A DNA stretch of 24,088 nucleotides, taken from an uncultured bacterium. Its GTDB lineage: Bacteria; Armatimonadota; Hebobacteria; Hebobacterales; Hebobacteraceae. Below the pieces are notes generated by a model. That model had not been told where the DNA came from. It made no database searches and saw only the letters and a list, made by a program, of their open reading frames with translations. Below, piece by piece: positions 3,221 through 20,980 of this stretch. The DNA is taken from contig CAZWRO010000004.1 in the NCBI GenBank assembly GCA_964635365.1, positions 6,800 to 30,887 of the forward strand. The letters are read 5' to 3'. A program made the position numbers and the translations under genes. Position 1 is the stretch's first letter, and each line of letters begins with the position of its first letter.

Positions 3221-5641
3221 ATGGCTATGGCAGCCTGGGCGAGGATATCTTTTGTCTGTGGCCTGTTGGGTCTCTCCGCGCTCCAGTTCAGCGTTGGCCC
3301 CGGAACTGCCGCCGAGCTGACTGCTGACCGCGCGTGGGCCCGCGATCAAGTTGTGGTCCCCGTCTCGCCGGGCCTGTCCGCCCCGTCTTCCCGTTCCCAC
3401 GTCGTATCGGTCGAGTCGAAGGTGGTGCTGGCAGCACCGAACGATCCCGCTTACACCGACCTGATGGGTGAGCTTCACGTCCAGTGGCCCGCCCATGCGC
3501 TGAATCTCGTCGAGGCCTGGGGCTACTATCCTGGTTGGTACTTCGAGGCCTCGGGCCGTCCGCAAGAGGCGCCGATTGTGGCGGTCATCGACACGGGCGT
3601 GGACTCCAGCCACGCGGACTTCATGAATCCCGGCGCGACCAGCAGCGCGGCCTGTGACGGGGGGCAACTCATGCTATCGGCCGCGCGAAGTTTCCTTGTT
3701 GGAGATCCTGACCAGTACCAGGACGGCGCGGTGGATGAACACGGGCATGGGACGCATCTGGCGGGGCTGATTGCGGCCGGTGCGAACAACGGAGTCACGG
3801 AGGAGGGCGGCGTCGCGGGGCTGGGATATCCGGTGCGGCTGCTCCCGATCAAAGTGGCCGGCGCCAACGGAGTCGCGATGAACGTCGATGTTGCGGCGGC
3901 AATAGTGTATGCGGCCGACCAAGGCGCGTTGGTGATTCTGCTCGGGGTGGCCTGCCCCACTTGGTCACAGGTGGTCCAGGATGCGGTGGACTATGCGTGG
4001 GAGCGGGGCTGCTTTTTGGTGGCGCCGGCTGGTGTCGAGCCGGAGGAACAGCACATGTTTCCGGCGGCCTGTCCTCATGTGTTCGGTGTCGGATCTGTTG
4101 CGTCTGACCTGGCATTGGCCGGCTATTCGCCGGCGGGAGATGAGGTTGCGCTTGTGGGGCCGGGGGGTGACGAGATGATAGGGGTGTACTCGACGCTGCC
4201 GACCTATGCTTGTACGCTCAGGAGCCAGCCTGTCGGAGCTGATTACGGATGGCTGTGCGGCACGTCGCAGGCCGCGGCGCACGTGGCGGCGGCGGCCGGA
4301 TTGTATGCTGGGCTGGATGCTGGATCTCAGAGCGGTGAGCGTGACGGGGCCAGGATCTGGCAGGCGCTGCAGCGCAGTGCCACCGCGGTGGAAGGCGCCA
4401 CCGAAGGGACGTGGGACGAATTCCGTGGATACGGCTTGGTGTCGCCATCCGGGGTTCTCAAGGGGGAAGCGACAGAAGGCGCCGGGGGAATCGTTGGAAG
4501 GGTGTTAGCGTCGGGCACCGCGGCTGTGGGAGCCACGGTGACGGCCTACCCGGAGGGGGGAGGCACACCGGTGACAGCGGTGGCAAGGCGGCCAGCCGCA
4601 GCCTACCGCCTGGAAAATGTTCCCACTGGCACCTATCTAGTGAGGGCGGAGACGGAGGACTACACGGGCGAGTGGGAAGGGGTGGTGGTCGCGGGGCACT
4701 GCGATGTGCCGGGTGTGGATTTCCGACTTGCCGACCCTCCGGCGGGAGCGACGCTGATTGCGGCCGAGATCCCGGCGGCGGCCGTGCGCGGGGAGCGGTT
4801 GGAGGTATTGGTGAGGCTAGCGAATACGGGGGATTCGTCATGGCAACGCGCCGACGGGTACAGGCTGAGGCAGACCGCATGTGACAACCCGCTCTGCGTT
4901 GACCCCGCGGAGATGGACCTGGAGCCGGGTGAAATCGTGGCACCGGGGCAGTCGCGGACCTTCGTGGCCTCGTTGCCCGTTCGCGACACCTGCGGCTTCT
5001 ATGAGACAGCCTGGCAGATGTGCCAGCAGGGCGGCGCAGGTAGATTCGGGGAGGTTGCCGTGGGAACCGTGAGCGTCACCTCCTTTTTGGACGTCCCTGC
5101 GGATCATTGGGCGCTGGCGGCCATTGAGGCAGCGAAGGCCGCTGGATTGGTGTCGGGGTATGATGGACATCTGTATCATCCGGAGTGGCTCGTGTCCCGC
5201 GACCAGATGGCCGTCTACTTGGCAAGGGCCCTGGCCGGCGGGGACGCTCTGGTGCCGGCGGGGCCGGCTGCCTCGACTTTCGAGGATGTGTCGCCGGGAC
5301 ACTGGGCCTATAAGTACGTCGAGTATGTGCACGAGCGGGAGGTCGCGCAAGGATACTTGAACGGCCTCTACCATCCGGAGTACGTGCTCGACCGCGCGCA
5401 GATGGCGGTTTTCATTGCACGGGCAATGGGGGGAGGAGAAGGGGGGCTGGAAGGCTATGTGCCACCGGCGAGGCCGAGCTTTTCGGATGTGCCGCCGGAC
5501 TCGTGGGCCTACAAGCACGTGGAGTACATCAAGGGAAGCGGCGTGGTCGCAGGGTATCCGGATGGCTTGTACCATCCCGAGTACGAGTGCTCGCGGGATC
5601 AGATCGCGGTGTACATCGCAAACGCCTTCGGGATGGAGTGA
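3221..5641 (+). CDS. Secreted S8 (subtilisin-like) serine peptidase-family protein with carboxypeptidase-regulatory-like and NBR1/FW-type Ig-like domains and 3 C-terminal SLH domains
   Basis: N-terminal signal peptide; triad motifs VAVIDTG, HGHGTHLAG and GTSQAA; 'PNDP' mature-start motif; three SLH repeats (FxDVxxxxWA..G..YHPE...R.Q.AV..A) from 5081. Confidence 0.85.
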   Translation: MAMAAWARISFVCGLLGLSALQFSVGPGTAAELTADRAWARDQVVVPVSPGLSAPSSRSHVVSVESKVVLAAPNDPAYTDLMGELHVQWPAHALNLVEAWGYYPGWYFEASGRPQEAPIVAVIDTGVDSSHADFMNPGATSSAACDGGQLMLSAARSFLVGDPDQYQDGAVDEHGHGTHLAGLIAAGANNGVTEEGGVAGLGYPVRLLPIKVAGANGVAMNVDVAAAIVYAADQGALVILLGVACPTWSQVVQDAVDYAWERGCFLVAPAGVEPEEQHMFPAACPHVFGVGSVASDLALAGYSPAGDEVALVGPGGDEMIGVYSTLPTYACTLRSQPVGADYGWLCGTSQAAAHVAAAAGLYAGLDAGSQSGERDGARIWQALQRSATAVEGATEGTWDEFRGYGLVSPSGVLKGEATEGAGGIVGRVLASGTAAVGATVTAYPEGGGTPVTAVARRPAAAYRLENVPTGTYLVRAETEDYTGEWEGVVVAGHCDVPGVDFRLADPPAGATLIAAEIPAAAVRGERLEVLVRLANTGDSSWQRADGYRLRQTACDNPLCVDPAEMDLEPGEIVAPGQSRTFVASLPVRDTCGFYETAWQMCQQGGAGRFGEVAVGTVSVTSFLDVPADHWALAAIEAAKAAGLVSGYDGHLYHPEWLVSRDQMAVYLARALAGGDALVPAGPAASTFEDVSPGHWAYKYVEYVHEREVAQGYLNGLYHPEYVLDRAQMAVFIARAMGGGEGGLEGYVPPARPSFSDVPPDSWAYKHVEYIKGSGVVAGYPDGLYHPEYECSRDQIAVYIANAFGME
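5081..5632 (+). repeat. Three tandem SLH (S-layer homology) domain repeats within the S8 gene
   Basis: SFLDVPADHWA…YHPEWLVSRDQMAVYLARA; FEDVSPGHWA…YHPEYVLDRAQMAVFIARA; FSDVPPDSWA…YHPEYECSRDQIAVYIANA. Confidence 0.9.
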
Positions 5642-6648: not shown

Positions 6649-6677
6649 TTGACCCGGCCATATCCAGATGCTATTGT
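6649..6677 (+). promoter_or_regulatory. Putative sigma70-type promoter of the S55 protease gene
   Basis: TTGACC (6649-6654), 17-nt spacer, TATTGT (6672-6677) preceded by TGn; 32 nt upstream of ATG 6710. Confidence 0.5.
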
Positions 6678-6709
6678 CTGTGAACTTCGTTGTCCCGGAG
6701 ATTTTGCTC

Positions 6710-9700
6710 ATGATCCGTTCCTTGCGTGTTGGCCTGCTCTTACTCGCACTTATCCTTCTGGTGGCGCACCCTTGCCTGTCGCAGAGCAGGGCGGATATGT
6801 ACCCGCTTGACGAAGTGCGCGTGGGTCAGCGCGCGGTGGCCAAGTCTGTGTTCCGCGGGACGCGGATCGAGTCGTTTCATGTGGAGATCATCGGGGTTCT
6901 GCGCAAGTTCGACGGCACTCGGAGCTTGATACTTGGCCGCGTGCTGGATGGGCCGGTGGTGGCGAGGAACAGCGGGGTGATAGGCGGCATGAGCGGGAGC
7001 CCAGTTTACATTGACGGGCGCCTGGCGGGAGCGATAGCTCTAACCTGGCCGTGGAGCAGGGAGCCGATAGCGGGGATCACGCCGATCGAGGATATGCTGG
7101 CCGCGTGGCAGACCGCACCTTCGGACGGGAGCCAACCGGCGGCGGCCTCCGGGGGGGCGCTCATCTCTCCACTGCGGGTGGAGGATACGGTCATTCGACG
7201 GCTGAACGTGGCTCCGACTCCCCCGGTGGAGCCAGACCCACCCGGAGTGATGACACTCGTGCCGTTGGGCGGGTTCATGCAGGTGTCGGGGTTCAACCGC
7301 CGAGGTCTGGAGCGTGTTGCCGAACTGCTGTCCCCTTACGGGCTGCACGTGGTGCAGGGGCCGGGCGGAACTGAAGATCAATTGACTCCCGCGCTGGTGC
7401 CGGGTGCGGCGCTCGGAGCGCAGTTGGTCCGGGGCGATTTCGATATGACCGCGCTGGGCACCGTGACCCTGGTGGAAGGCGACCGCGTGCTGGGTTTCGG
7501 GCACCCGCTCTTCGAGCTCGGAGCGATCGATGTGCCGATGACCGGGGGTTATGTACACGACATACTGCCGAGTCTGCAGTTCTCGAACAAGATCATGTCG
7601 GCCACGCAGGTGGTGGGCCGGATCTACCGAGATCACCAGTGCGCCATCGCCGGCGTGCGCGGCGAGCAGGCGGATATGCTTCCGGTGACCATAGAAGTGA
7701 CGGATCGCGATAGCGCTCGGTCGCGCACATTCGAGATCGAGGTGGCACGAATACGTCGGCTATTGCCGTCTCTGGTTGCGACCTCGGTGGTGACGGCGGT
7801 CGATGAGACGCGCGGGAGGGTCAACCGCGGCACCGCGCGCTTCAGCATGGATATTGAGCTTGAGGGACGTCCCGCTCTGCATCGCGAGGACGCGGGATAT
7901 AGCGAGGGCGACGCCGCCCTGGCGACGCTGTCTTTGGTGCTCGGGCCCCTGGCGCTGTTCACCGACAACCAGTTCGGTGAAGTTAGGATGAATGACGTAA
8001 GGATTCACTTGGAGACCGAGGACGCGCGGGAGACAGCCGCTATCGAGCGGGTGACCGTGGCGCAATCGCGGATTGAAGCGGGCGATGAAGTGACCTTGAA
8101 TGTGAGGGTCCGGCCTTATGGGAGAAGCTCGGCGGAGGTGCCGGTGCAGCTCTCGCTGCCGCCCGACCTGCCAACAGGACAGGTGCGCGTGGTTGTGAGC
8201 GGGGGGGCCAGCGCCGACGAGGCACGCCAGGCGATCGGCGCGCCCAGGCCGCGCCCGATCTCGTTGGATCAGTTGGTGGACCGCTATGTGTCCGGGGATG
8301 GAGCATCGGATCTGATCGTCCAGGCGCGGCTGCCGCGGGCCGGGGTGTCGCTGCTGGGCGCGGAGCTTCCTCGGCTGCCAGTGGCGGCACAGCAGGCGCT
8401 TCGGGCGGTCAACCCAACTGATCTGCGTCCTGCGCCCTCGGTGCTTAAGGCCATCGTCCCCACGGAGTGGGTGCTGACGGGGCGGCAGCTGGTGACGCTG
8501 CAGGTTGAGAGTCCGGTTGCCGCCGGGGCGCCGGCCAGGCCGGAGGCGCCACCCGCGGAAGGACCACCAGAGCAACCGGAGCCGGGAGAGAACGAGGCCG
8601 GTTCGCACGGTGGAAGAGGTGACGCGGTCGAGGTGCGAGGCGCGGAGTTGTTGCCGGCGGTAATCGAGCTGGCCGGCGGGAACAACAGCCGGGGACGCGG
8701 GGGGCAGGCAGCGGAGGAAGAGGGTCCGGAGCCGCCCACGCGAGCGCCCGAAGTCTGGGTGCATCAAACGAGGTCTGACTTCGCCGGGGCCGAGACGGAC
8801 AACGTGGCGGTCGATGTTGACGGCGGGCTGTCGCTTTCGTTGTCTCAGGCCGAACTGGCGCGACTGCCGGCAGACGTGATATGGAGCGTCGCGGTGCACG
8901 ACGGTGAAGTCTATGTTGGCACCGGCTGCAACGGTCTAGTTTACAGACTGTCGGATGGCGGGGAGCCGGTGGAGTTTTTCGCCACCGGGGAGATGAACGT
9001 GCACGCGCTGGCCTTCGACAGCGAAGGCAACCTGTATGCGGCCACCTCGCCGGAGGGGAGGCTGTTTCGCATTGCGCCGGACGGAACCGGGCGACTGGTG
9101 TCCGACTCCGAGAGCGCCTATCTCTGGTGTCTCGTGATTGGCCCGGAGGAAACGGTCTATGCCGGCGGAGGCGCTCCGGCAAGGATCTACGCGGTCCGCC
9201 CTGACGGTGAGTCGGAAGTGTTGGCGGAGCTTCCGGCGGCCAACGTTCTCTCCTTGGTCCGGGGGAGTGCGGGCGAGCTATTCGCGGGCACATCTGAGGC
9301 CGCTGTGATTTATCGGGCTGAGGCTGATCGGACTGTGAGAGCGCTGTGTCAACTTTCGGGCACTTCAGTCGACGCTTTGGTCATCGATGAAGACGGCGAT
9401 CTGTATGCCGCGGCTTCGCCCGGGGGGAACGTCTACAAAATCCCAAGTGACGGTCTGGCCGATCTGTACTGCGAGACGGATCAGCAGGTAATCCACGGGC
9501 TGGGCGCCATTTCGGGCGGAGATCTGATTGTCGCAACGGGACCGGAGGGAATCTTGGTGCGCGCGGCGGCCGCGGGGGAACCGGAAGCGATCTTTCGTCC
9601 GGAAGCGGGGATTGCGACGGCCCTTGTCGTGAGCGATGGCGCGGTGTATGTGGGGAGCTCGGGGCCGTCCGTGCTGCGCAGATTTGGGCCGGGGCAGGCG

Positions 9701-10633
9701 GCTGTGGGGTCGGTTGAGTCGACGGTCCTCGATGCGGGGAGGCCGGCGCGCTGGGGGAGGGCGAACTTGACGGCCAGCGTCCCGGAGGGAGCCGAGGTGC
9801 GGGTCGAAACGCGGTCGGGTAACTCGCCGGACGCGGAAGACCACTGGAGTAGTTGGTCCCCCGTGATGCAGGAGGTAATAACCAGCCCGCCGTCGCGGTA
9901 TCTTCAGTACAGGCTGCGCATCGCCGCTTCCGTGACGGGGGTGACTCCGACGGTGCAGCAGGTGCGGATCTCTTATCGCTCTCAGAATCGTCCTCCGGCG
10001 TGCTCGTTGAGGGCCCCGGAGGCGGGAGATCGAATTTCCGGGACGGTTGACATGACGTGGCAGGCCCGGGACCCCGATAGGGATACTCTAAGCTATCAGG
10101 CTGCGGTTTCTACTGACCTTGCGGAAAGCTGGGAGGAGCTGAAGGCGGGTCTCACGGAAACCACCTATGAGTGGGATACGACCGAGAGAGACGATGGCCG
10201 CTACGTGGTTCGGATCACGGCCAGCGATGTCCGCAGCGTGCCGGAGGATCCTCGCACGGCCAAGGATACGGTGATCGTCTGGGTGGATAACACGGCTCCA
10301 CAGGTCATGCTGTTCAGGACATCGGTTTCTGTGGGGGAGGATCGACGGGTGCAAGCGACGGGCATGGCAAGCGATGCGACTTCGCCGATTCGCAGCGTGG
10401 AGTACCGGGTGGATGAGGGGGAGTGGAGTTCTCTGCCGCTGCCCGCCATAGAGGCTTCGCTGACGGACTTCTCCGTGGCTACCGACGCCCTTGCGGTCGG
10501 CGAGCACACGCTCGAGGTGAGGGCGTTCGACGGCGCCGGGAACCTGGCGACCGACAGCGTGCAGGTTACCGTCGCAGAGGGCACGTCGGAGTCTGGCGTG
10601 CAGGCCACAGGGGAGGAAGTGCGGGAGCCTTAG
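6710..10633 (+). CDS. Secreted SpoIVB/S55-type serine peptidase fused to a beta-propeller and Ig/FN3-like domains
   Basis: Signal peptide; 'GVIGGMSGSPVYIDGRLAGAIA' (SpoIVB GIVQGMSGSPII type); 'ALGTVT…GFGHP'; Pro/Glu-rich linker; repeated 'xxLAxDxxGxLYAxT/S..G.v.r' propeller blades; C-terminal 'DNTAP' and 'GEHTLEVRAFDGAGN' Ig domains. ATG 6710 chosen because a signal peptide follows directly. Confidence 0.8.
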   Translation: MIRSLRVGLLLLALILLVAHPCLSQSRADMYPLDEVRVGQRAVAKSVFRGTRIESFHVEIIGVLRKFDGTRSLILGRVLDGPVVARNSGVIGGMSGSPVYIDGRLAGAIALTWPWSREPIAGITPIEDMLAAWQTAPSDGSQPAAASGGALISPLRVEDTVIRRLNVAPTPPVEPDPPGVMTLVPLGGFMQVSGFNRRGLERVAELLSPYGLHVVQGPGGTEDQLTPALVPGAALGAQLVRGDFDMTALGTVTLVEGDRVLGFGHPLFELGAIDVPMTGGYVHDILPSLQFSNKIMSATQVVGRIYRDHQCAIAGVRGEQADMLPVTIEVTDRDSARSRTFEIEVARIRRLLPSLVATSVVTAVDETRGRVNRGTARFSMDIELEGRPALHREDAGYSEGDAALATLSLVLGPLALFTDNQFGEVRMNDVRIHLETEDARETAAIERVTVAQSRIEAGDEVTLNVRVRPYGRSSAEVPVQLSLPPDLPTGQVRVVVSGGASADEARQAIGAPRPRPISLDQLVDRYVSGDGASDLIVQARLPRAGVSLLGAELPRLPVAAQQALRAVNPTDLRPAPSVLKAIVPTEWVLTGRQLVTLQVESPVAAGAPARPEAPPAEGPPEQPEPGENEAGSHGGRGDAVEVRGAELLPAVIELAGGNNSRGRGGQAAEEEGPEPPTRAPEVWVHQTRSDFAGAETDNVAVDVDGGLSLSLSQAELARLPADVIWSVAVHDGEVYVGTGCNGLVYRLSDGGEPVEFFATGEMNVHALAFDSEGNLYAATSPEGRLFRIAPDGTGRLVSDSESAYLWCLVIGPEETVYAGGGAPARIYAVRPDGESEVLAELPAANVLSLVRGSAGELFAGTSEAAVIYRAEADRTVRALCQLSGTSVDALVIDEDGDLYAAASPGGNVYKIPSDGLADLYCETDQQVIHGLGAISGGDLIVATGPEGILVRAAAAGEPEAIFRPEAGIATALVVSDGAVYVGSSGPSVLRRFGPGQAAVGSVESTVLDAGRPARWGRANLTASVPEGAEVRVETRSGNSPDAEDHWSSWSPVMQEVITSPPSRYLQYRLRIAASVTGVTPTVQQVRISYRSQNRPPACSLRAPEAGDRISGTVDMTWQARDPDRDTLSYQAAVSTDLAESWEELKAGLTETTYEWDTTERDDGRYVVRITASDVRSVPEDPRTAKDTVIVWVDNTAPQVMLFRTSVSVGEDRRVQATGMASDATSPIRSVEYRVDEGEWSSLPLPAIEASLTDFSVATDALAVGEHTLEVRAFDGAGNLATDSVQVTVAEGTSESGVQATGEEVREP

Positions 10634-14316: not shown

Positions 14317-17300
14317 CTACCGTACTTCTATCGTCACAGGCTCTGCGGTGGCCTCGATCTCGGGGTTGTAGTAGCGGTAGACCCGGGAGCTCGGCGTGGC
14401 GGCCCTCATGGGGAAGTTCGCCCGGAGCCGATAGGAGATGTCCAAGGGTTCTCGGGAAGCCAGGCGGTCGAGATAGATGATGATCTGGCGAGCCGCAATG
14501 GTGTACTTCTGGATGGTGCCTTCGTCCACCAGGCTCTGGAGGTCCTCGGCCAGCACCTGGAATCCGGGCGGGACGCCGAGATCGATCACGACCATGTTGC
14601 AGTCCCGCGGATCCTGGTTGACGACCCGGACGGAGGCGGTGACGATATCGTCAGTGGAAAGGGTCGTGCGGTCGTAGTCGACATCGATGGTCAGCAGCTC
14701 CTGGGCCGGCGGCCGGACCATCTCCCACGGGAGGTAGTACTTGGCGACGATTTGGTAGAGCGCGCTGCCCTCGCCGGTGATTGCGACGCGGACGTCGTTG
14801 GCGCCCGCGCGCACCAGCTCTCGAGCGTCGACTTGGCGCACCACGTCGTAGTCGTCCTGAGTGATGCGGAAGGAGCCAGCCTGCTCGCCGTTAACCTCGA
14901 CGGTGACCGTGGCATCGATCTGCTCGGTCGCGCGATGGAGCGAAAGGAGCAGCGCCTTCAGGGACCACACCGTCGCCTGGGTGGTCTGCCAGGTCCCGAA
15001 GCTATCCTTGGAACGGATCAGATAGGTGATGGCCTTGTTGGTGAGGCCGACGTGGCGTTCGGACTTGACCAGCGCGTAGGTCGCCAGGGCCGTGGTTTCG
15101 AGGTCGGCCGAGCCGTCCTGCGCGGAGGTGAAGGTCGGCGCTTGAGCCTGCCAGTAGGCGGCGCTTTCGTCGGCGATCGCCAGGCCGGCAAGGGCGTCGA
15201 CGACGCGGGTTGCGTTGGCGGAGTCCGGTGCGCCGCTGAGGTAGGCATTGGCGATCACGGCGAGGGTGTACGGGTCATCGACCTCGCGCCAGTGAGCGTC
15301 GAGGTAGCGGAGCCCGAGCGAGATTTCCTCTCCCTGGTAGCCGGATTCGGCCAGGGTCCAGGTGATGTAGGCCGTGACGCGCACGGTGTCGGTCTGACGG
15401 TTGATAACGCCTTCCGCGATGCCTCCTTCGTCACGCTCCCAGGAGCCGTCTTGTCTCTGCAGGCCAGCCAGCCAGCGCTGGGTGCGAGTGATGACGTTTT
15501 CGTCCACCTCGTGCACTCGGCTCATGTCCCGGAACAGCAAGAGCCCGTAGGCGGTGAGCACCTTGTGGGCCGGGGGCTGTCCGAACCAGGAGAAGCCGCC
15601 GCCGTCCACCTCGAAGGACAGGAGGCGTTGATAGCCGACGTTGATGTGCTGCTCGGCTTTCATTTGGATCTCGGGATTGGCCTGGTTGGTGGACCTGAAG
15701 TAGTCGAGCACCAGAACGTTAGGATAGGTGACGGAGCTGGTCTGCTCGAAGCAGCCGAACGGCATTCGCAGGAGCGAATCGAGGCCCTCAACGGCTTGGC
15801 TGAAGAGGCCCGGGTAGATCTTCACCAGGATGGTGGAGGCGTCCGGGATGGCCTGCTGCGGGAGGGTGACAGTCCGCTCCACGGTGCCTTCCAGGCGGTC
15901 GTTCCAGGTGTCTCGCTGTTCTTCGCCGTCGGGGAGCACCTCGATCTCGCGACGGATGGCATCGCTCAGCCGAGAGCCGCGGGCACGGACGGTGAGACGG
16001 TGAACGCCGATGCCGGTGGTCCGGAGGCGGTAGTAGACGACGCGGATGTCGGAGGCCGCGATGTCCAGCGACTTCTCGGCTTCGTCGTCTACGAGCTCGA
16101 ACCAGGGCTGAGTCTCCAACGCCAGATTGATCGTCTGGGGTTCCGGAAGGTAGTTGTAGACGGCGATGGGGATAGAGACCTCGTCGTTCTGCGTGAGGGC
16201 GACGGGGAGGTCGATGTCGATGAAGAAGTCCTGGAAGACCCGAAGGCCAGAGCTGGTGCTACCGAGCTGGCCGCGCTGGGAGGAGGCCAGGGCGCTCAGG
16301 CGCCAGGTGGTGATCGAATCGGCCATGTCCACCGTCACGGTTGCCTCTCCGCGCTGGTCGGTGATGATGGCCGGATTGACGTACATGGTCTCGGGGAAGA
16401 ACTGGCGCAAGCGGACTTGGGGTTGCCCTGGGGCTTCGGCGGACGCAGCTCCCTGGGCGACCTCTGATTCAGCCGCCGCCATGGGGGCGGCCACGCCTTT
16501 CTCCATGGCCATCATCGCGTCCAGGGCCACGACGCCTCCACCTCGGCCGAAGAAGCGGCCCACGAGTCCTTCGCGGGGCCAACGCGTGATGTTGCTAATG
16601 TCGTCGGAGGTCCGCCACTGGCCGTCGGGCCCGGCCGAATTTAGGGAGCACTCGGCCTGCCGCCATCGCACTCGGTAGGGATTGCCCCAGCGGTCGCGCA
16701 GGTCGTTGCGGTAGAGCAGCCCTTCTTCCACCAGCACTGAAATATCGGCCTCCGGCGACAGGTAGCGGTGGTGACGCGTATGGTACTGCTGGAGGGCGCG
16801 ATTGATCTTCTCGGCGTCTCTGGCGATGTCCCTCACCCAGGATTCCATCGCCTGCGCGAGGCGCTCCTGGTAAGTATTGACGGTGAGGTTGAAGGGATCG
16901 CGAGGCTGCGCGGCGGCGAAGAGGACGGCTGCGGCCCGCTGGCGAGTTGCCTCCGCCTCCGCCGGCTCGGGGGCTTCGAAGGGCAGTCGTCCGCTGACTA
17001 TGCCCTGGGGCGTGAAGCCGTGGATCTCGTAACGGGGGTGCAGGAGCTCACGCTCCAGAGCGAAGTACACTCGCTCCAGCCCGGGCTGCATCTCTTGGAG
17101 CGCGAAGACGCTTTCGTCAACGATGCTCACGCCGAGCACGGCGTGGACGGGGTTGCCTTGCTGATCGCGCACGGCGAAGGTCAGGCTGGCCGAATCGCCA
17201 GGTCGGTAGGTGTCTTGGTCGGGTCTGACCTCAACCAGGAGGTCGTTGGCCGGCTCCACGTAGAGAAGCCGGGTGCATCGGATGATGTTCTCGTCCGGCA

Positions 17301-18885
17301 GGATCTGATAGGCGTGTATCTCGAGCGTGCCGGACAGGTCGTGGGTCAGAGGGAGTTCGAAGTGCGCCCGCCCGTGGGAGATGTCAACGGTGCGGGTGAG
17401 CACGGTCTGGTTGTCGCGGATGACATCGACGTAAGTCGTGCCGGCCTGCTTGGTCGATATCACGTCGAACTGAACAGAGGTGCCGACGGGGGCGATGGAA
17501 CGATCTCCGCGGAGAATCAGGGCCTGCGCGGCGGTATCGGTGGGCAGGTCGATATCGCGGCTGACGCGATGTCCGGCGCTATCCACGACGTCGACGTGCA
17601 TTTGAACTCCGCCGCGCGGAGACGTGATGCGAGCGGCGAAGATGCCGGCCTGGTCGGTGGCGCCTTCGAGTACGGCCGGCGCCGCGGCTTCGCCGGCCGG
17701 CTGGGTGCTGACGGCGACGCGCGCACCGGCCGCGGGGTTTCCGTCCGGGGACGAGATGAGCAAGTAGACAATGTTCTCGATGTTCGGCTTGAGGTCACCG
17801 GACTCCGGGACGGCGGTGATGATGAGAGGAGCCGTGGCAACCGGAGCGGTGTGGACTATTCTCTCGGTGTGATCGGCGCGGTCGGTGACCTCCACGTCGA
17901 GCTTCACGAAGGCATTGCCCTGCTCCAACGGCTGTCCGACGAAGTAGGTCGGCAGGTCAGTCTCGAATCGGAAGCTCCCGCTCTCGTCCGTGCGGCCTCG
18001 GATCTCGGCCACCTCGTGGAAGGCGGTGTCGAAGGTCGAGACGGTGATCAATACCTCGGATTGGGAGGTTGGCTTGCCGAAGAAATAGTCAGCCTGGATC
18101 CTTCCGGTGAGTCGATCTCCCGGGAGGTAGTAGGGTCGTTCCGTGGTGAGATTCACGCGGAACTTGGGCAGCACGTAGCGCCTGACGTTGACCGTCCGCT
18201 CGGCGCGGCCGTCCTCCATCACGGCACGCACCGTGTAGGCTCCGAAGTTGATCTCGTCGGCGAGGATGAATTCGGCGGAGGCGACGCCAAAATCAGAGGT
18301 CTGAAGCTGCCGCTTGAAGACCTTGTTGCCCCTGGAGTCATCCACTTCCAGAGTGATCCCCGTGCCAGCGGCCGGCTGGAGGGAGGGCCGCTGCAGGGCC
18401 AGCGCGCGAAGGTGGATGGTCTGTCCCGGTTGGTAGAGGGGCTTGTCTGTAGTGAGCAAGATCTGCGCTTCGCGCGTGATGCTAATGGAGCGCTCAATGA
18501 CGTCGATTCCCAGGGCCGAAACTACTCGCACGGAGAGGTCGTACGCTCCGGGCGGCAGCTCGGGGACTCTGAACGAAGCGTCCACTGTGCCGGCGTCCAG
18601 GGCGCCGGTGAACAAGCGCTGAGGCGCCATGCGCAGGTCGGGGTCGGTGGGCGAGAGGGTGACATGGACGGCCCCGCGAACCGGTTCCCCGGTCTCGTGA
18701 TTGGTAACGATGATCCGCAGGGAGGCCGGGCCGCCGGCAAGCCATTGCGATTGGCCTCGGAGGACAGTCTGGAGGGGGGACAGGTCATCCGAAGAGCGGG
18801 AAGTGGCGGCAAGGGCAACCGACAACGCCACGCCGATCACGACAATCGCTAGCCACTTAGTCAAGAGACGACTGTTCTTGCTCAC
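14317..18885 (-). CDS. Alpha-2-macroglobulin-family thioester protein (secreted, complement/TEP-like layout)
   Basis: MG2 'LLTTDKPLYQPGQTI', 'VSIVDESVFAL', post-bait 'RQFFPET…DSITTW', thioester 'MPFGCFEQ' (15753-15742), alpha/alpha TED 'GGFSWF…LTAY' and receptor-binding domain 'NMVVIDLGVPPGF…RVYRYYNP'. GTG start with AAGGAG SD; Sec signal without a lipobox Cys. Confidence 0.92.
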   Translation of the reverse strand: MSKNSRLLTKWLAIVVIGVALSVALAATSRSSDDLSPLQTVLRGQSQWLAGGPASLRIIVTNHETGEPVRGAVHVTLSPTDPDLRMAPQRLFTGALDAGTVDASFRVPELPPGAYDLSVRVVSALGIDVIERSISITREAQILLTTDKPLYQPGQTIHLRALALQRPSLQPAAGTGITLEVDDSRGNKVFKRQLQTSDFGVASAEFILADEINFGAYTVRAVMEDGRAERTVNVRRYVLPKFRVNLTTERPYYLPGDRLTGRIQADYFFGKPTSQSEVLITVSTFDTAFHEVAEIRGRTDESGSFRFETDLPTYFVGQPLEQGNAFVKLDVEVTDRADHTERIVHTAPVATAPLIITAVPESGDLKPNIENIVYLLISSPDGNPAAGARVAVSTQPAGEAAAPAVLEGATDQAGIFAARITSPRGGVQMHVDVVDSAGHRVSRDIDLPTDTAAQALILRGDRSIAPVGTSVQFDVISTKQAGTTYVDVIRDNQTVLTRTVDISHGRAHFELPLTHDLSGTLEIHAYQILPDENIIRCTRLLYVEPANDLLVEVRPDQDTYRPGDSASLTFAVRDQQGNPVHAVLGVSIVDESVFALQEMQPGLERVYFALERELLHPRYEIHGFTPQGIVSGRLPFEAPEPAEAEATRQRAAAVLFAAAQPRDPFNLTVNTYQERLAQAMESWVRDIARDAEKINRALQQYHTRHHRYLSPEADISVLVEEGLLYRNDLRDRWGNPYRVRWRQAECSLNSAGPDGQWRTSDDISNITRWPREGLVGRFFGRGGGVVALDAMMAMEKGVAAPMAAAESEVAQGAASAEAPGQPQVRLRQFFPETMYVNPAIITDQRGEATVTVDMADSITTWRLSALASSQRGQLGSTSSGLRVFQDFFIDIDLPVALTQNDEVSIPIAVYNYLPEPQTINLALETQPWFELVDDEAEKSLDIAASDIRVVYYRLRTTGIGVHRLTVRARGSRLSDAIRREIEVLPDGEEQRDTWNDRLEGTVERTVTLPQQAIPDASTILVKIYPGLFSQAVEGLDSLLRMPFGCFEQTSSVTYPNVLVLDYFRSTNQANPEIQMKAEQHINVGYQRLLSFEVDGGGFSWFGQPPAHKVLTAYGLLLFRDMSRVHEVDENVITRTQRWLAGLQRQDGSWERDEGGIAEGVINRQTDTVRVTAYITWTLAESGYQGEEISLGLRYLDAHWREVDDPYTLAVIANAYLSGAPDSANATRVVDALAGLAIADESAAYWQAQAPTFTSAQDGSADLETTALATYALVKSERHVGLTNKAITYLIRSKDSFGTWQTTQATVWSLKALLLSLHRATEQIDATVTVEVNGEQAGSFRITQDDYDVVRQVDARELVRAGANDVRVAITGEGSALYQIVAKYYLPWEMVRPPAQELLTIDVDYDRTTLSTDDIVTASVRVVNQDPRDCNMVVIDLGVPPGFQVLAEDLQSLVDEGTIQKYTIAARQIIIYLDRLASREPLDISYRLRANFPMRAATPSSRVYRYYNPEIEATAEPVTIEVR

Positions 18886-19044: not shown

Positions 19045-20853
19045 CTAGTGGGCGCTGGCGATATGGATGACTCCGCCCTCGTATTGGAGGACGAGGTCTA
19101 GAATATCTCCGAGGAAGCGTAGAGGAACAACGGTGCGATCGCATCGCAGCGCGGCCGGAGCGCCCATTGCCACCGTCGCGCCATCCACGCCGGCCTGGTC
19201 GCTGCCGATGGTCACGGCTATGCTGTGTCCGCCGGCCGAGGCGGAGGCCTGCCGGGCTTCAGGCTCCCAGGTGACGCTGCCGCCAGCCTCTTCGATCACC
19301 GTCCGGAAGGGCACAATGGCGAGACCGTTTGCAATGGTGGTCGGGGCGTCCGCGCTCAACGGGTGGCCGTCGAAGTAGACCGGAACGGCCGGCACGACGA
19401 GGCGCTGGCCGGGGTGGATCGGATCGGATATAGACAGGTTGTTCGCCGCGGCCAGCGCGCCGGGCGATACGTGATATTCGGCGGCGATGCTCCAGAGACA
19501 GTCGCCGGAACGCACGGCGTAGCTGAGTTGCTGTGGGGCCGGCTCTGCGGCGACTCTGGAGGTCGGGGCCGGCTCGGCCGGTCGTGGCGGCAGAAGGGCG
19601 ACTTGAATGGCGGAAGGTATGGAAGCCGAGGACGGCGCGGCGGGCTCCGCAGTCAGCGTTTGCGGTGCGTCGGCCGTGGCGGCAATGGTTATCGGTGACG
19701 CCGAGGCGACCGGCTCGGGTGAGAAAGCTGGCCCCGTTGCTGGATGAGTGGGCGCAGGGGAGGGCTCTCGATCGCCGACCGCGAGGGGTTCAACTTGAGT
19801 GATCGGGAGCGGCTCGGAGCTGGCGGGCAGGCTGCGTGCGGGGTCAGCCACCGTCGGCGCCGGGGGCGTGGCAACCGCGGTGGCCGCGGGAACGCCGGCC
19901 ACCGGCTCCTCCACGGCCGTACTGGGAAGCATGGCGATCTGGATGGGGGCTACTCGGGAGCTGCGCTCCAGAGGCAACGGGGAAGGAGGACGAATTAGGT
20001 TGCCGCTTGGGCTCACGAAGGGAGCCGTTCCAGGAAGGGCCAGTTCGGGATCGGCTACTCTGACGGCCCGCGCTTCGGGCGCAAGGCTCTCGGTGTGCAT
20101 GGGTGGAGGCAGGACCGGGCTGCCGGCTCGTGCCGGCGGCTGCATTGGCTCGGGGGTCGGGGTTGAACTGGCGGCGCGCATCGCCGTCGCCCCGCTCGGA
20201 TTGTTGACGAGCACCTCTAGGGGTGAAGCCAGCGACTCGGCGCCTCCCGCAAGATGGGCTCTCGCCTGAACGCGATGCAGACCGTTGAGATAGCTCGTCG
20301 TGTCCCAGAAGTAGGTGTAGGGACGGACGTTGGACATCGCCTTGAAGGTGTCGTCCACGAGGAAGACCACGTACCTGACCAGGGAAGGTCGATCGGTTTC
20401 CACCTCGACGGGGGTGACGCCTGACACCGTCTGACCGGCCGTCGGAGAGGTCAGGCGAATGACCGGGCCGATTCCCTGCGGGGTGCGTTGCAGCCAGATC
20501 GACAGACTCGTTTCGGCGGCGCGCCCCTCGGTGTCCAGCGCGCGAACGGTCAGCTCATGCGCTCCATTCGCGCAGTAGGAGGCAGTCCAGGTGAGGGAGA
20601 CGGATCCGCGCGTTTGCGGCGGATCTAGGTCGACCTCTTGCATCACGGCGCCATCGACTATCAGGAACAAGCGCTCGATGGCCGCATCGGTCGACGAGGA
20701 GTAGGAGGCGACTGTTTCGAGTGTGTTGGATACGACAGTAATGCCGGCCTGGGGAGCAGTAATGGTGACAACTGGGTCGGCCGTGGCTGCGGCGAGGGCG
20801 GTGACGAGAAGGAGGGTTGTCAGAATGACGACGAGAAACGCGGAGCCTTTCAC
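19045..20853 (-). CDS. Secreted cell-surface protein: 2 bacterial Ig-like domains, Pro/Ala-rich linker, LysM, and copper-amine-oxidase N-terminal (stalk) domain
   Basis: Signal peptide after GTG 20853 (AAGGAG SD at 20868-20863); Ig 'PVVTITAP…NGAHELTVRALD' and 'PVIRLTSP…WDTTSYLNGLH'; LysM 'YAVRSGDCLWSIAAEYHVSPGALAAANNL…IHPGQRLVVP'; stalk 'VPFRTVIEEAGGSVTW…RTVVPLRFL'. Confidence 0.85.
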   Translation of the reverse strand: MKGSAFLVVILTTLLLVTALAAATADPVVTITAPQAGITVVSNTLETVASYSSSTDAAIERLFLIVDGAVMQEVDLDPPQTRGSVSLTWTASYCANGAHELTVRALDTEGRAAETSLSIWLQRTPQGIGPVIRLTSPTAGQTVSGVTPVEVETDRPSLVRYVVFLVDDTFKAMSNVRPYTYFWDTTSYLNGLHRVQARAHLAGGAESLASPLEVLVNNPSGATAMRAASSTPTPEPMQPPARAGSPVLPPPMHTESLAPEARAVRVADPELALPGTAPFVSPSGNLIRPPSPLPLERSSRVAPIQIAMLPSTAVEEPVAGVPAATAVATPPAPTVADPARSLPASSEPLPITQVEPLAVGDREPSPAPTHPATGPAFSPEPVASASPITIAATADAPQTLTAEPAAPSSASIPSAIQVALLPPRPAEPAPTSRVAAEPAPQQLSYAVRSGDCLWSIAAEYHVSPGALAAANNLSISDPIHPGQRLVVPAVPVYFDGHPLSADAPTTIANGLAIVPFRTVIEEAGGSVTWEPEARQASASAGGHSIAVTIGSDQAGVDGATVAMGAPAALRCDRTVVPLRFLGDILDLVLQYEGGVIHIASAH

Positions 20854-20951
20854 GGCAGGCCACTCCTTTTTTGGGTCGTGTCCGGGGCCCTCGACGGGAT
20901 CGGTTGGCGCCGGTTCGCGCCCCGATCCCACCCCGCTCTGGAAGCGCAGGA

Positions 20952-20980
20952 ATGATAGCATGCGAGTTATGGTACGTCAA
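20952..20980 (-). promoter_or_regulatory. Putative sigma70-type promoter of the LysM gene
   Basis: Minus strand TTGACG (20980-20975), 17-nt spacer, TATCAT (20957-20952) with TGn extension. Confidence 0.65.

Follow-up and report, generated by a model that had tools for sequence, protein, structure and literature searches.

Alpha-2-macroglobulins (A2Ms) are the textbook spring-loaded protease traps, and how their trigger is held is still under study. In the native state of the family, a segment termed alpha'NT, which includes R732 and F735 of human A2M, passes through a channel that has the first LNK helix as its floor, and it retracts upon cleavage of the bait region (Harwood et al., PMC9352918). 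The complement proteins C3, C4 and C5 carry a small folded domain, the anaphylatoxin (ANA) domain, after LNK and directly ahead of the scissile or bait site and alpha'NT (PMC9352918); human A2M, A2ML1 and CD109 (6tav, 7q1y, 8s3o) have flexible sequence only at this place. Here we describe a bacterial A2M in which the same slot holds a domain that, by sequence and predicted fold, is a homologue of the head of GspG, the major type II secretion system (T2SS) pseudopilin. It is encoded on a 24,088-nucleotide stretch of DNA from an uncultured bacterium of the Armatimonadota family Hebobacteraceae (GenBank assembly GCA_964635365.1, contig CAZWRO010000004.1, positions 6,800 to 30,887 of the forward strand), hereafter the window, to which all coordinates refer unless another contig is named. 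The gene (P0002) occupies 14317–18885 on the minus strand as a 1522-codon open reading frame (ORF) and specifies a secreted, thioester-type A2M of 1522 residues.

The domain order of the protein, MG1–6, LNK, bait, alpha'NT, MG7, CUB/TED with the CxEQ motif and RBD/MG8, is that of the three human proteins, which are its best matches of solved structure (E 4e-71 to 2e-59); the LNK helix and the equivalents of R732 and F735 are conserved. Unlike them, it is bacterial, has a Sec signal, is about 1520 residues long and bears a pilin head in place of the flexible sequence. The insert shares the position of the ANA domain but not its fold, being an alpha/beta pilin head where ANA is a disulfide-rich helical bundle; a second processing site for its release is not evident, and it has no known signalling role. 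The alpha1-C helix, DPWGxPY strand and GPDG...T.DD calcium loop are common to the insert and to GspG, PulG and EpsG (3g20, 5o2y, 3gn9, 4lw9). In contrast to those pseudopilins, the insert has no leader, N-methyl-Phe/Glu5 helix or membrane segment, is embedded in a 1522-residue protein outside a T2SS operon, and cannot polymerise in the known way. Escherichia coli YfhM (ECAM) and the Salmonella A2M, both type I, are likewise bacterial thioester protease traps with a bait region, but the present protein lacks both a lipobox and a neighbouring pbpC gene, and YfhM is a distant match (E 1e-9).

A literature search directed at this architecture, with most subscription journals outside its coverage, turned up no account of an A2M with a pilin-like domain. 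The architecture is already implicit in databases, two homologues having been tagged with Pfam T2SSG by precomputed annotation; we regard it as an undescribed variant of a known family. Its interest lies in a widespread group of bacterial traps that puts a foreign folded domain where complement puts the ANA domain, a second, independent case of folded-domain insertion between LNK and bait. As a simple bacterial system, the group lets one ask how a slot domain affects exposure of the bait, stability of the trigger and specificity, and it shows that a pseudopilin head can exist as a soluble, leaderless module outside secretion systems.

Identity of the Inserted Domain

The head spans residues 672–770 (16576–16872, minus strand) and is composed of a long helix, short helices and a beta-sheet. 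When residues 640–800 were excised, Pfam T2SSG matched at 27 bits (E 4.9e-6, cut-off 21) over profile positions 5–108 of 108; within the full-length protein, the match covers residues 679–769 and scores 19.8 bits, slightly below the cut-off. The NCBIfam GspG equivalog TIGR01710 gave the excised segment 19.5 bits, far under its cut-off of 88.85. A profile of 30 homologous inserts returned GspG/PulG structures as its five top PDB matches and nothing else below E 0.05. The strongest evidence for homology is reciprocal retrieval: a profile made from A2M inserts alone recovers genuine GspGs of 140–144 residues in other genomes of the phylum, each with a GFTLIEL leader and encoded immediately after gspF in a T2SS operon. 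Compared by BLASTP with a genuine 140-residue GspG from a T2SS operon of the phylum, the head is 34% identical over 90 residues (E 1e-10), and hhalign pairs it with a second one at a probability of 97.7% (E 1.7e-12).

Structure prediction agrees. AlphaFold2 folded residues 630–830 with a core at 670–769 of predicted local distance difference test (pLDDT) values above 90, built from a 34-residue helix, a pair of short helices and a small sheet, and the same core was recovered when residues 440–940 were folded. In a Foldseek search with the model, GspG of enterohaemorrhagic E. coli (EHEC), Vibrio EpsG and PulG ranked first, and the structural matches were pseudopilins and pilins only. VIA-align superposed the head model on EHEC GspG (3g20) with a Z score of 8.0 over 97 residues and a root-mean-square deviation of 3.2 Å. 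A chance match of a short DPWG...GPDG...DD motif in an ordinary linker, which could appeal to the full-length Pfam and equivalog scores, has practically no probability left and is refuted by the excised segment's score across the full Pfam profile, the profile-versus-PDB result, the reciprocal BLASTP and hhalign matches, and a confident independent fold whose best structural matches, by Foldseek and VIA-align, are GspG structures.

On the pseudopilin side, the alignments start at about residue 46 of the precursor, and the leader and membrane helix are therefore missing from the head; a hydrophilic helix extension stands in place of the membrane helix. Sequence and hydropathy revealed no prepilin leader, no G/F cleavage site and no hydrophobic alpha1-N helix with Glu5 before Y672. 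The sole hydrophobic segment of the whole A2M is at N-terminal residues 5–32. The head lies inside the A2M gene, and the window holds no T2SS gene.

The domain had been proposed in a first-pass annotation, made from the DNA letters alone, as a GspG head without its prepilin membrane helix, with a calcium loop, and followed directly by a flexible bait. The strings quoted there are present in the minus-strand frame of ORF 14317–18885, and each of these features is borne out, by the results above for the head and the missing helix, and by those below for the loop and bait. Its boundaries needed one correction: the interval 16410–16830 (residues 686–826) takes in most of the head, the whole bait and the first residues of VRLRQFFPET, but the head begins 14 residues earlier, at Y672 (16872).

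Position Between LNK and Bait

The head occupies the slot of the ANA domain of C3, C4 and C5, as judged from profile alignments to C5 and C3 that flank the insert with LNK before it and alpha'NT after it. In the profile of residues 440–940, GLERVYFALERE (602–613), which follows MG6a, aligns to the complement C5 segment PLERVFQFLEKS, and the alignment picks up again at VRLRQFFPET, 8–14 residues past the C5 and C3 convertase sites. The resulting order is MG6a, LNK helices (603–615 and 642–660), head (672–770), bait (772–821), plug and MG6b.

The elements around the head are those of a family trigger. The first LNK helix, LERVYFALERELL (residues 603–615; 17041–17079, minus strand), corresponds to the plug-in-channel floor and is the most conserved short element, with 74% mean pairwise identity among 16 phylum-wide orthologues. 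The second, with the core RQRAAAVLFAAAQ (residues 642–660; 16906–16962, minus strand), is a helix in both AlphaFold2 models and is nearly invariant in an alignment of 39 homologues. Directly C-terminal to the head, at the A2M bait position, comes a predicted disordered bait rich in Ala, Gly, Arg, Pro and Met (residues 772–821; 16423–16572, minus strand), with pLDDT values of 30–50 in both models. It is hypervariable in the 16 orthologues, with 16% mean pairwise identity and lengths of 48–82 residues. The alpha'NT plug VRLRQFFPET (residues 824–833; 16387–16416, minus strand) aligns to human VRKYFPET; R827 and F830 correspond to R732 and F735 of human A2M, and R827, F830, P831 and T833 are invariant in the 39 homologues.

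The Calcium Loop

GspG of EHEC binds calcium in the loop PGPDGVPNTEDD through D117, T122, D125 and two backbone carbonyls (PMC3396595). The same ligand positions occur in PulG and OutG, where the site governs pilin stability: PulG is disordered and degraded without calcium, whereas OutG, a close GspG relative, is stable without it (PMC13081927). In the head, the corresponding motif is AGPDGQWRTSDD (residues 751–762; 16600–16635, minus strand), aligned to the PulG and EHEC GspG loops. D754, T759 and D762 align with D117, T122 and D125, as the first-pass annotation had led one to expect. D754, D761 and D762 do not vary across the 39 homologues, at least 90% of which retain T759. Because the loop aligns and its ligands are conserved, the head is likely to bind calcium.

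The Host A2M

Pfam domains above cut-off in the A2M include MG2, MG3, A2M_BRD (residues 460–596), A2M (838–921), TED_complement (1029–1312) and A2M_recep (1429–1514), and the canonical domain order is complete. The gap from A2M_BRD to A2M is about 240 residues, compared with about 130 by Pfam domain coordinates in human A2M. Residues 1–27 (18805–18885, minus strand) form a Sec-type signal peptide or N-terminal anchor with no lipobox Cys. The thioester motif GCFEQ (residues 1044–1048; 15742–15756, minus strand) reads intact, and GCFEQTSS was found in all 13 orthologues examined.

By its sequence relationships the product is an animal-like A2M and not of the ECAM type, given that the closest solved structures are human A2M (E 4e-71), CD109 and A2ML1 and that YfhM reaches only E 1e-9. 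Frog A2M, C4, TEP1 and C3 follow the human proteins among the structural matches. Matches to bMG10 and bMG5 stay under the Pfam cut-off, and the window contains no pbpC gene.

Distribution and Related Inserts

About 50 close homologues of about 1520 residues all contain the insert. Within the phylum, a match at E ≤1e-10 is present in 96 of 301 sampled genomes, in 60 of 159 genera and in 13 of 14 genomes of the window's family, nearly always once per genome and within an open frame of 1500–1700 codons. The census of A2Ms with a T2SSG-like domain that the first-pass annotation had suggested thus finds an architecture that is not peculiar to this gene. Sixteen orthologous loci were fetched for scoring of the slot; one (L020, genome G178) gave no full-length gene and was left unscored, and all 15 intact genes have exactly one module and no membrane helix there, with a slot of 194–263 residues. 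The pilin head is a defining feature of this orthologue group, which is represented in about a third of the sampled genomes of the phylum. Three genomes (G133:C1:1195722-1196541, G265:C1:2651231-2651555 and G092:C18:29435-30221) have an apparently broken orthologue: two split the head matches across adjacent frames and one has an in-frame TAG.

A search of 1.84 billion cluster representatives gave 3985 matches at E 0.001, of which 387 reach 1e-10. The best 150 of the 3985 are mostly A2Ms of about 2000 residues with three modules, together with small secreted three-module proteins and giant multi-repeat proteins, and none of these 150 has a prepilin leader. The three-module A2Ms, of an Acidobacteria type, use the same slot as the present protein, which differs in having a single module and no CarboxypepD_reg domain in the slot. 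Outside A2Ms, the leaderless module recurs in proteins of about 275 residues with a signal peptide and three modules (P0104, P0115, P0129 and P0195). The giant proteins P0053 (4137 residues), P0057, P0094 and P0161 have 13–25 stretches matching the C-terminal half of the module.

With an alpha'NT–MG7 profile, A2M-type genes were found in 245 of the 301 phylum genomes, and those fetched form three groups. Besides the head-bearing orthologues, a nearer related group lacks the head and has a slot of 182–253 residues with three to six predicted membrane helices, which the present protein does not have; the members are L036 (G142:C159), L038 (G056:C126), L037 (G071:C4), L039 (G244:C41) and L041 (G092:C45). 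L037 and L041 lack the CxEQ thioester, and L036 begins with an anti-sigma-like zf-HC2 domain and two membrane helices. The third group, ECAM-like proteins of the phylum, has slots of 11–22 residues only. One of these, L035 (G133:C1:574000-582000), comes from the window's own family and combines bMG3, bMG10, the motif CTEQ and an N-terminal CarboxypepD_reg domain with an 11-residue slot; two kinds of A2M thus coexist in one family.

The last membrane helix of the second group ends in LFPVFAKAREKAR in L036 (4066–4338, minus strand) and LFPVFSRAREQSR in L039 (4859–5116, minus strand) and resembles the alpha1 helix of pilins. For L036, the top NCBIfam match of this helix is GspG, a weak one (17.9 bits, E 0.0024), followed by weaker PilA, GspH and ComGE matches amid unrelated membrane-protein matches; for L039, NCBIfam gave no pilin-family match. 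The resemblance in sequence may be an evolutionary link between the head-type and membrane-helix-type inserts. Since relatives hold one head, membrane helices or 11–22 residues at this place, the slot between LNK and bait is an insertion hotspot of A2Ms, occupied by one or three pilin heads or by a membrane-helix block.

A Proposed Role for the Head

Because the canonical trigger and warhead parts are intact and conserved, the simplest reading of the protein is an ordinary protease trap. We put at about even the chance that it is an animal-like A2M of this sort with a pendant, calcium-stabilised stopper or spacer beside its trigger. It would be an exported, monomer-type, thioester-bearing trap with the usual plug-in-channel trigger of the family. 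A protease would cut the exposed, disordered bait at 772–821, the segment with R827 and F830 would then leave the channel formed by MG2, MG3 and the LNK helix, the body would collapse, and the thioester C1045–Q1048 would capture the protease. The head would be a compact, calcium-stabilised and probably protease-resistant pendant domain that, by its bulk, serves as stopper and spacer at the channel's entry side. It would hold the bait, at its N-terminal end, outside the MG ring, confine cleavage to the flexible stretch, and remain on the N-terminal fragment after cleavage.

Two results bear on the pendant placement. Mean pairwise identity in the orthologue set (n = 16) is 38% for the head, 48% for the MG ring, 66% for TED and 16% for the bait; the head evolves faster than the MG ring and TED, as expected of a peripheral domain. 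In complex prediction, residues 640–780 were paired with MG1–MG6a, MG6b–MG7 and RBD, with weak support (score 0.51; best of three controls, 0.00). Of 80 solved complexes, 58 reached the mark used, as did 2 of 110 mismatched pairs, and scores at the mark but not above 0.60 came from only seven of the 80 solved complexes and from both passing mismatches. Confident contacts are limited to residues 643–679, which take in the second LNK helix and the opening turns of the head helix; the second LNK helix provides most of those made with the MG ring. The head proper made no confident contacts in this prediction, and docking on MG3 or MG8 as seen for ANA was not observed. The prediction used chopped chains and alignments of our own and may partly reflect memorised A2M-family structures. 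Contacts of this extent, as modelled, and the faster evolution of the head fit a pendant domain.

Several points weigh against a pendant stopper. That the head is free does not follow from the complex prediction, in which residues left unnamed are simply uncertain. We infer the stopper and spacer role from position and from analogy with ANA. Human A2M, A2ML1 and CD109 function although this place holds no folded domain in them; the basic mechanism thus does not depend on the head, which must add something else, be it stability, exposure, binding or the sensing of calcium. The 38% conservation of the head could also suit a binding function.

The head may instead be a working part of the trigger, which we hold to be improbable yet worth stating in its two versions. 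In one, by analogy with PulG, the head would unfold without calcium and so arm or fire the trap. In the other, which is evolutionary, the head-type and membrane-helix-type inserts would both descend from the capture of one whole pseudopilin into the bait slot, and the captured pseudopilin would first have stitched the trap to the inner membrane. Taken as a mechanism in its own right, a calcium-gated trigger seems to us quite unlikely. The head would fold only with calcium and otherwise unfold, becoming extra bait or letting the plug slip, and the trap would be armed or fired by the calcium level outside the cytoplasm. Every side-chain calcium ligand is conserved in the head, and the PulG precedent of disorder and degradation is apt, but the stability of OutG without calcium means that calcium dependence of the head cannot be presumed (PMC13081927).

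We consider a binding or oligomerisation module just as unlikely as calcium gating. The head would tether the trap to a component of the cell envelope, recruit targets or pair traps into dimers. Purifying selection on the head across the phylum (38% identity versus 16% for the bait) is in keeping with this, as are the multi-copy arrays, of a kind typical for binding modules, with three copies in A2Ms of the Acidobacteria type and as many as 25 matched stretches in giant proteins, and the gene for a LysM/Big_7 protein just upstream in four of five in-family loci. However, no result points to a ligand or partner, and no neighbour is conserved outside the family.

The first-pass annotation had itself favoured a decoy or docking function. 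As a decoy, the head would mimic a subunit of a pilus or pseudopilus and lure pilin-recognising proteases, phage proteins or predator factors to the trigger. It is a true GspG homologue with an intact calcium loop adjoining the bait, and the genome, as a check for such genes found, has several T2SS and type IV pilus (T4P) systems, with six secretins and many GspE-type ATPases. Nevertheless, we find a decoy highly doubtful. Mimicry of the genome's own GspG, encoded on contig C21 by a gene partly masked in the data, would have to overcome a BLASTP match confined to a 7-residue motif (E 0.12); the head is only some 34% identical to genuine GspGs of the phylum and is without the hydrophobic helix used in pseudopilin assembly. 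The conserved residues that could be identified are those of the fold core and calcium site common with GspG, and the same leaderless module exists outside A2Ms. Pseudopili are, moreover, periplasmic and rarely exposed to outside factors. What evidence there is on mimicry, little as it is, leans against it.

Docking is the least probable of these functions, and we rate it very unlikely. The head would bind T2SS or T4P parts (the pseudopilus tip, assembly platform or secretin) and route the A2M through the secretion system or station it there. Contig C21 of the same genome does carry a complete T2SS-like cluster, with secretin, GspE, F, G and minor pseudopilins, and the A2M has a Sec signal only, with no lipid anchor. 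Pseudopilin assembly, however, requires a hydrophobic N-terminal helix and prepilin processing; both the helix and the processing site are absent from the head, and none of the 16 loci across the phylum has a T2SS gene linked to the A2M.

Genomic Context

The 16 orthologous loci also have no conserved operon partner beyond the family. Within the window, the gene 159 bp upstream of the A2M gene and on the same strand (19045–20961, minus) encodes a 638-residue protein with two Big_7 domains, LysM and Cu_amine_oxidN1; it is the gene found upstream in four of five in-family loci, and it does not occur there outside the family. The SLH, LysM and Cu_amine_oxidN1 domains encoded around the A2M gene, and the homologues that bear names, indicate Armatimonadota. 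On contig C21, the locus L001 (G000:C21:14619-17918) consists of gspF, a GspG-like gene of 247 codons and then minor pseudopilin-like genes; the 247-residue product, whose gene is the partly masked one, has an unusually long C-terminal extension.

Two exported protease-like proteins are encoded 4–11 kb from the A2M gene. One is an S8 subtilase with three SLH repeats (3221–5641, plus strand), and the other, of 1321 residues, combines an S55 SpoIVB-like domain with a propeller motif and an Ig domain (6668–10633, plus strand). The S55 protein and a DtxR–FeoA gene are near the A2M gene in two other loci, both within the family.

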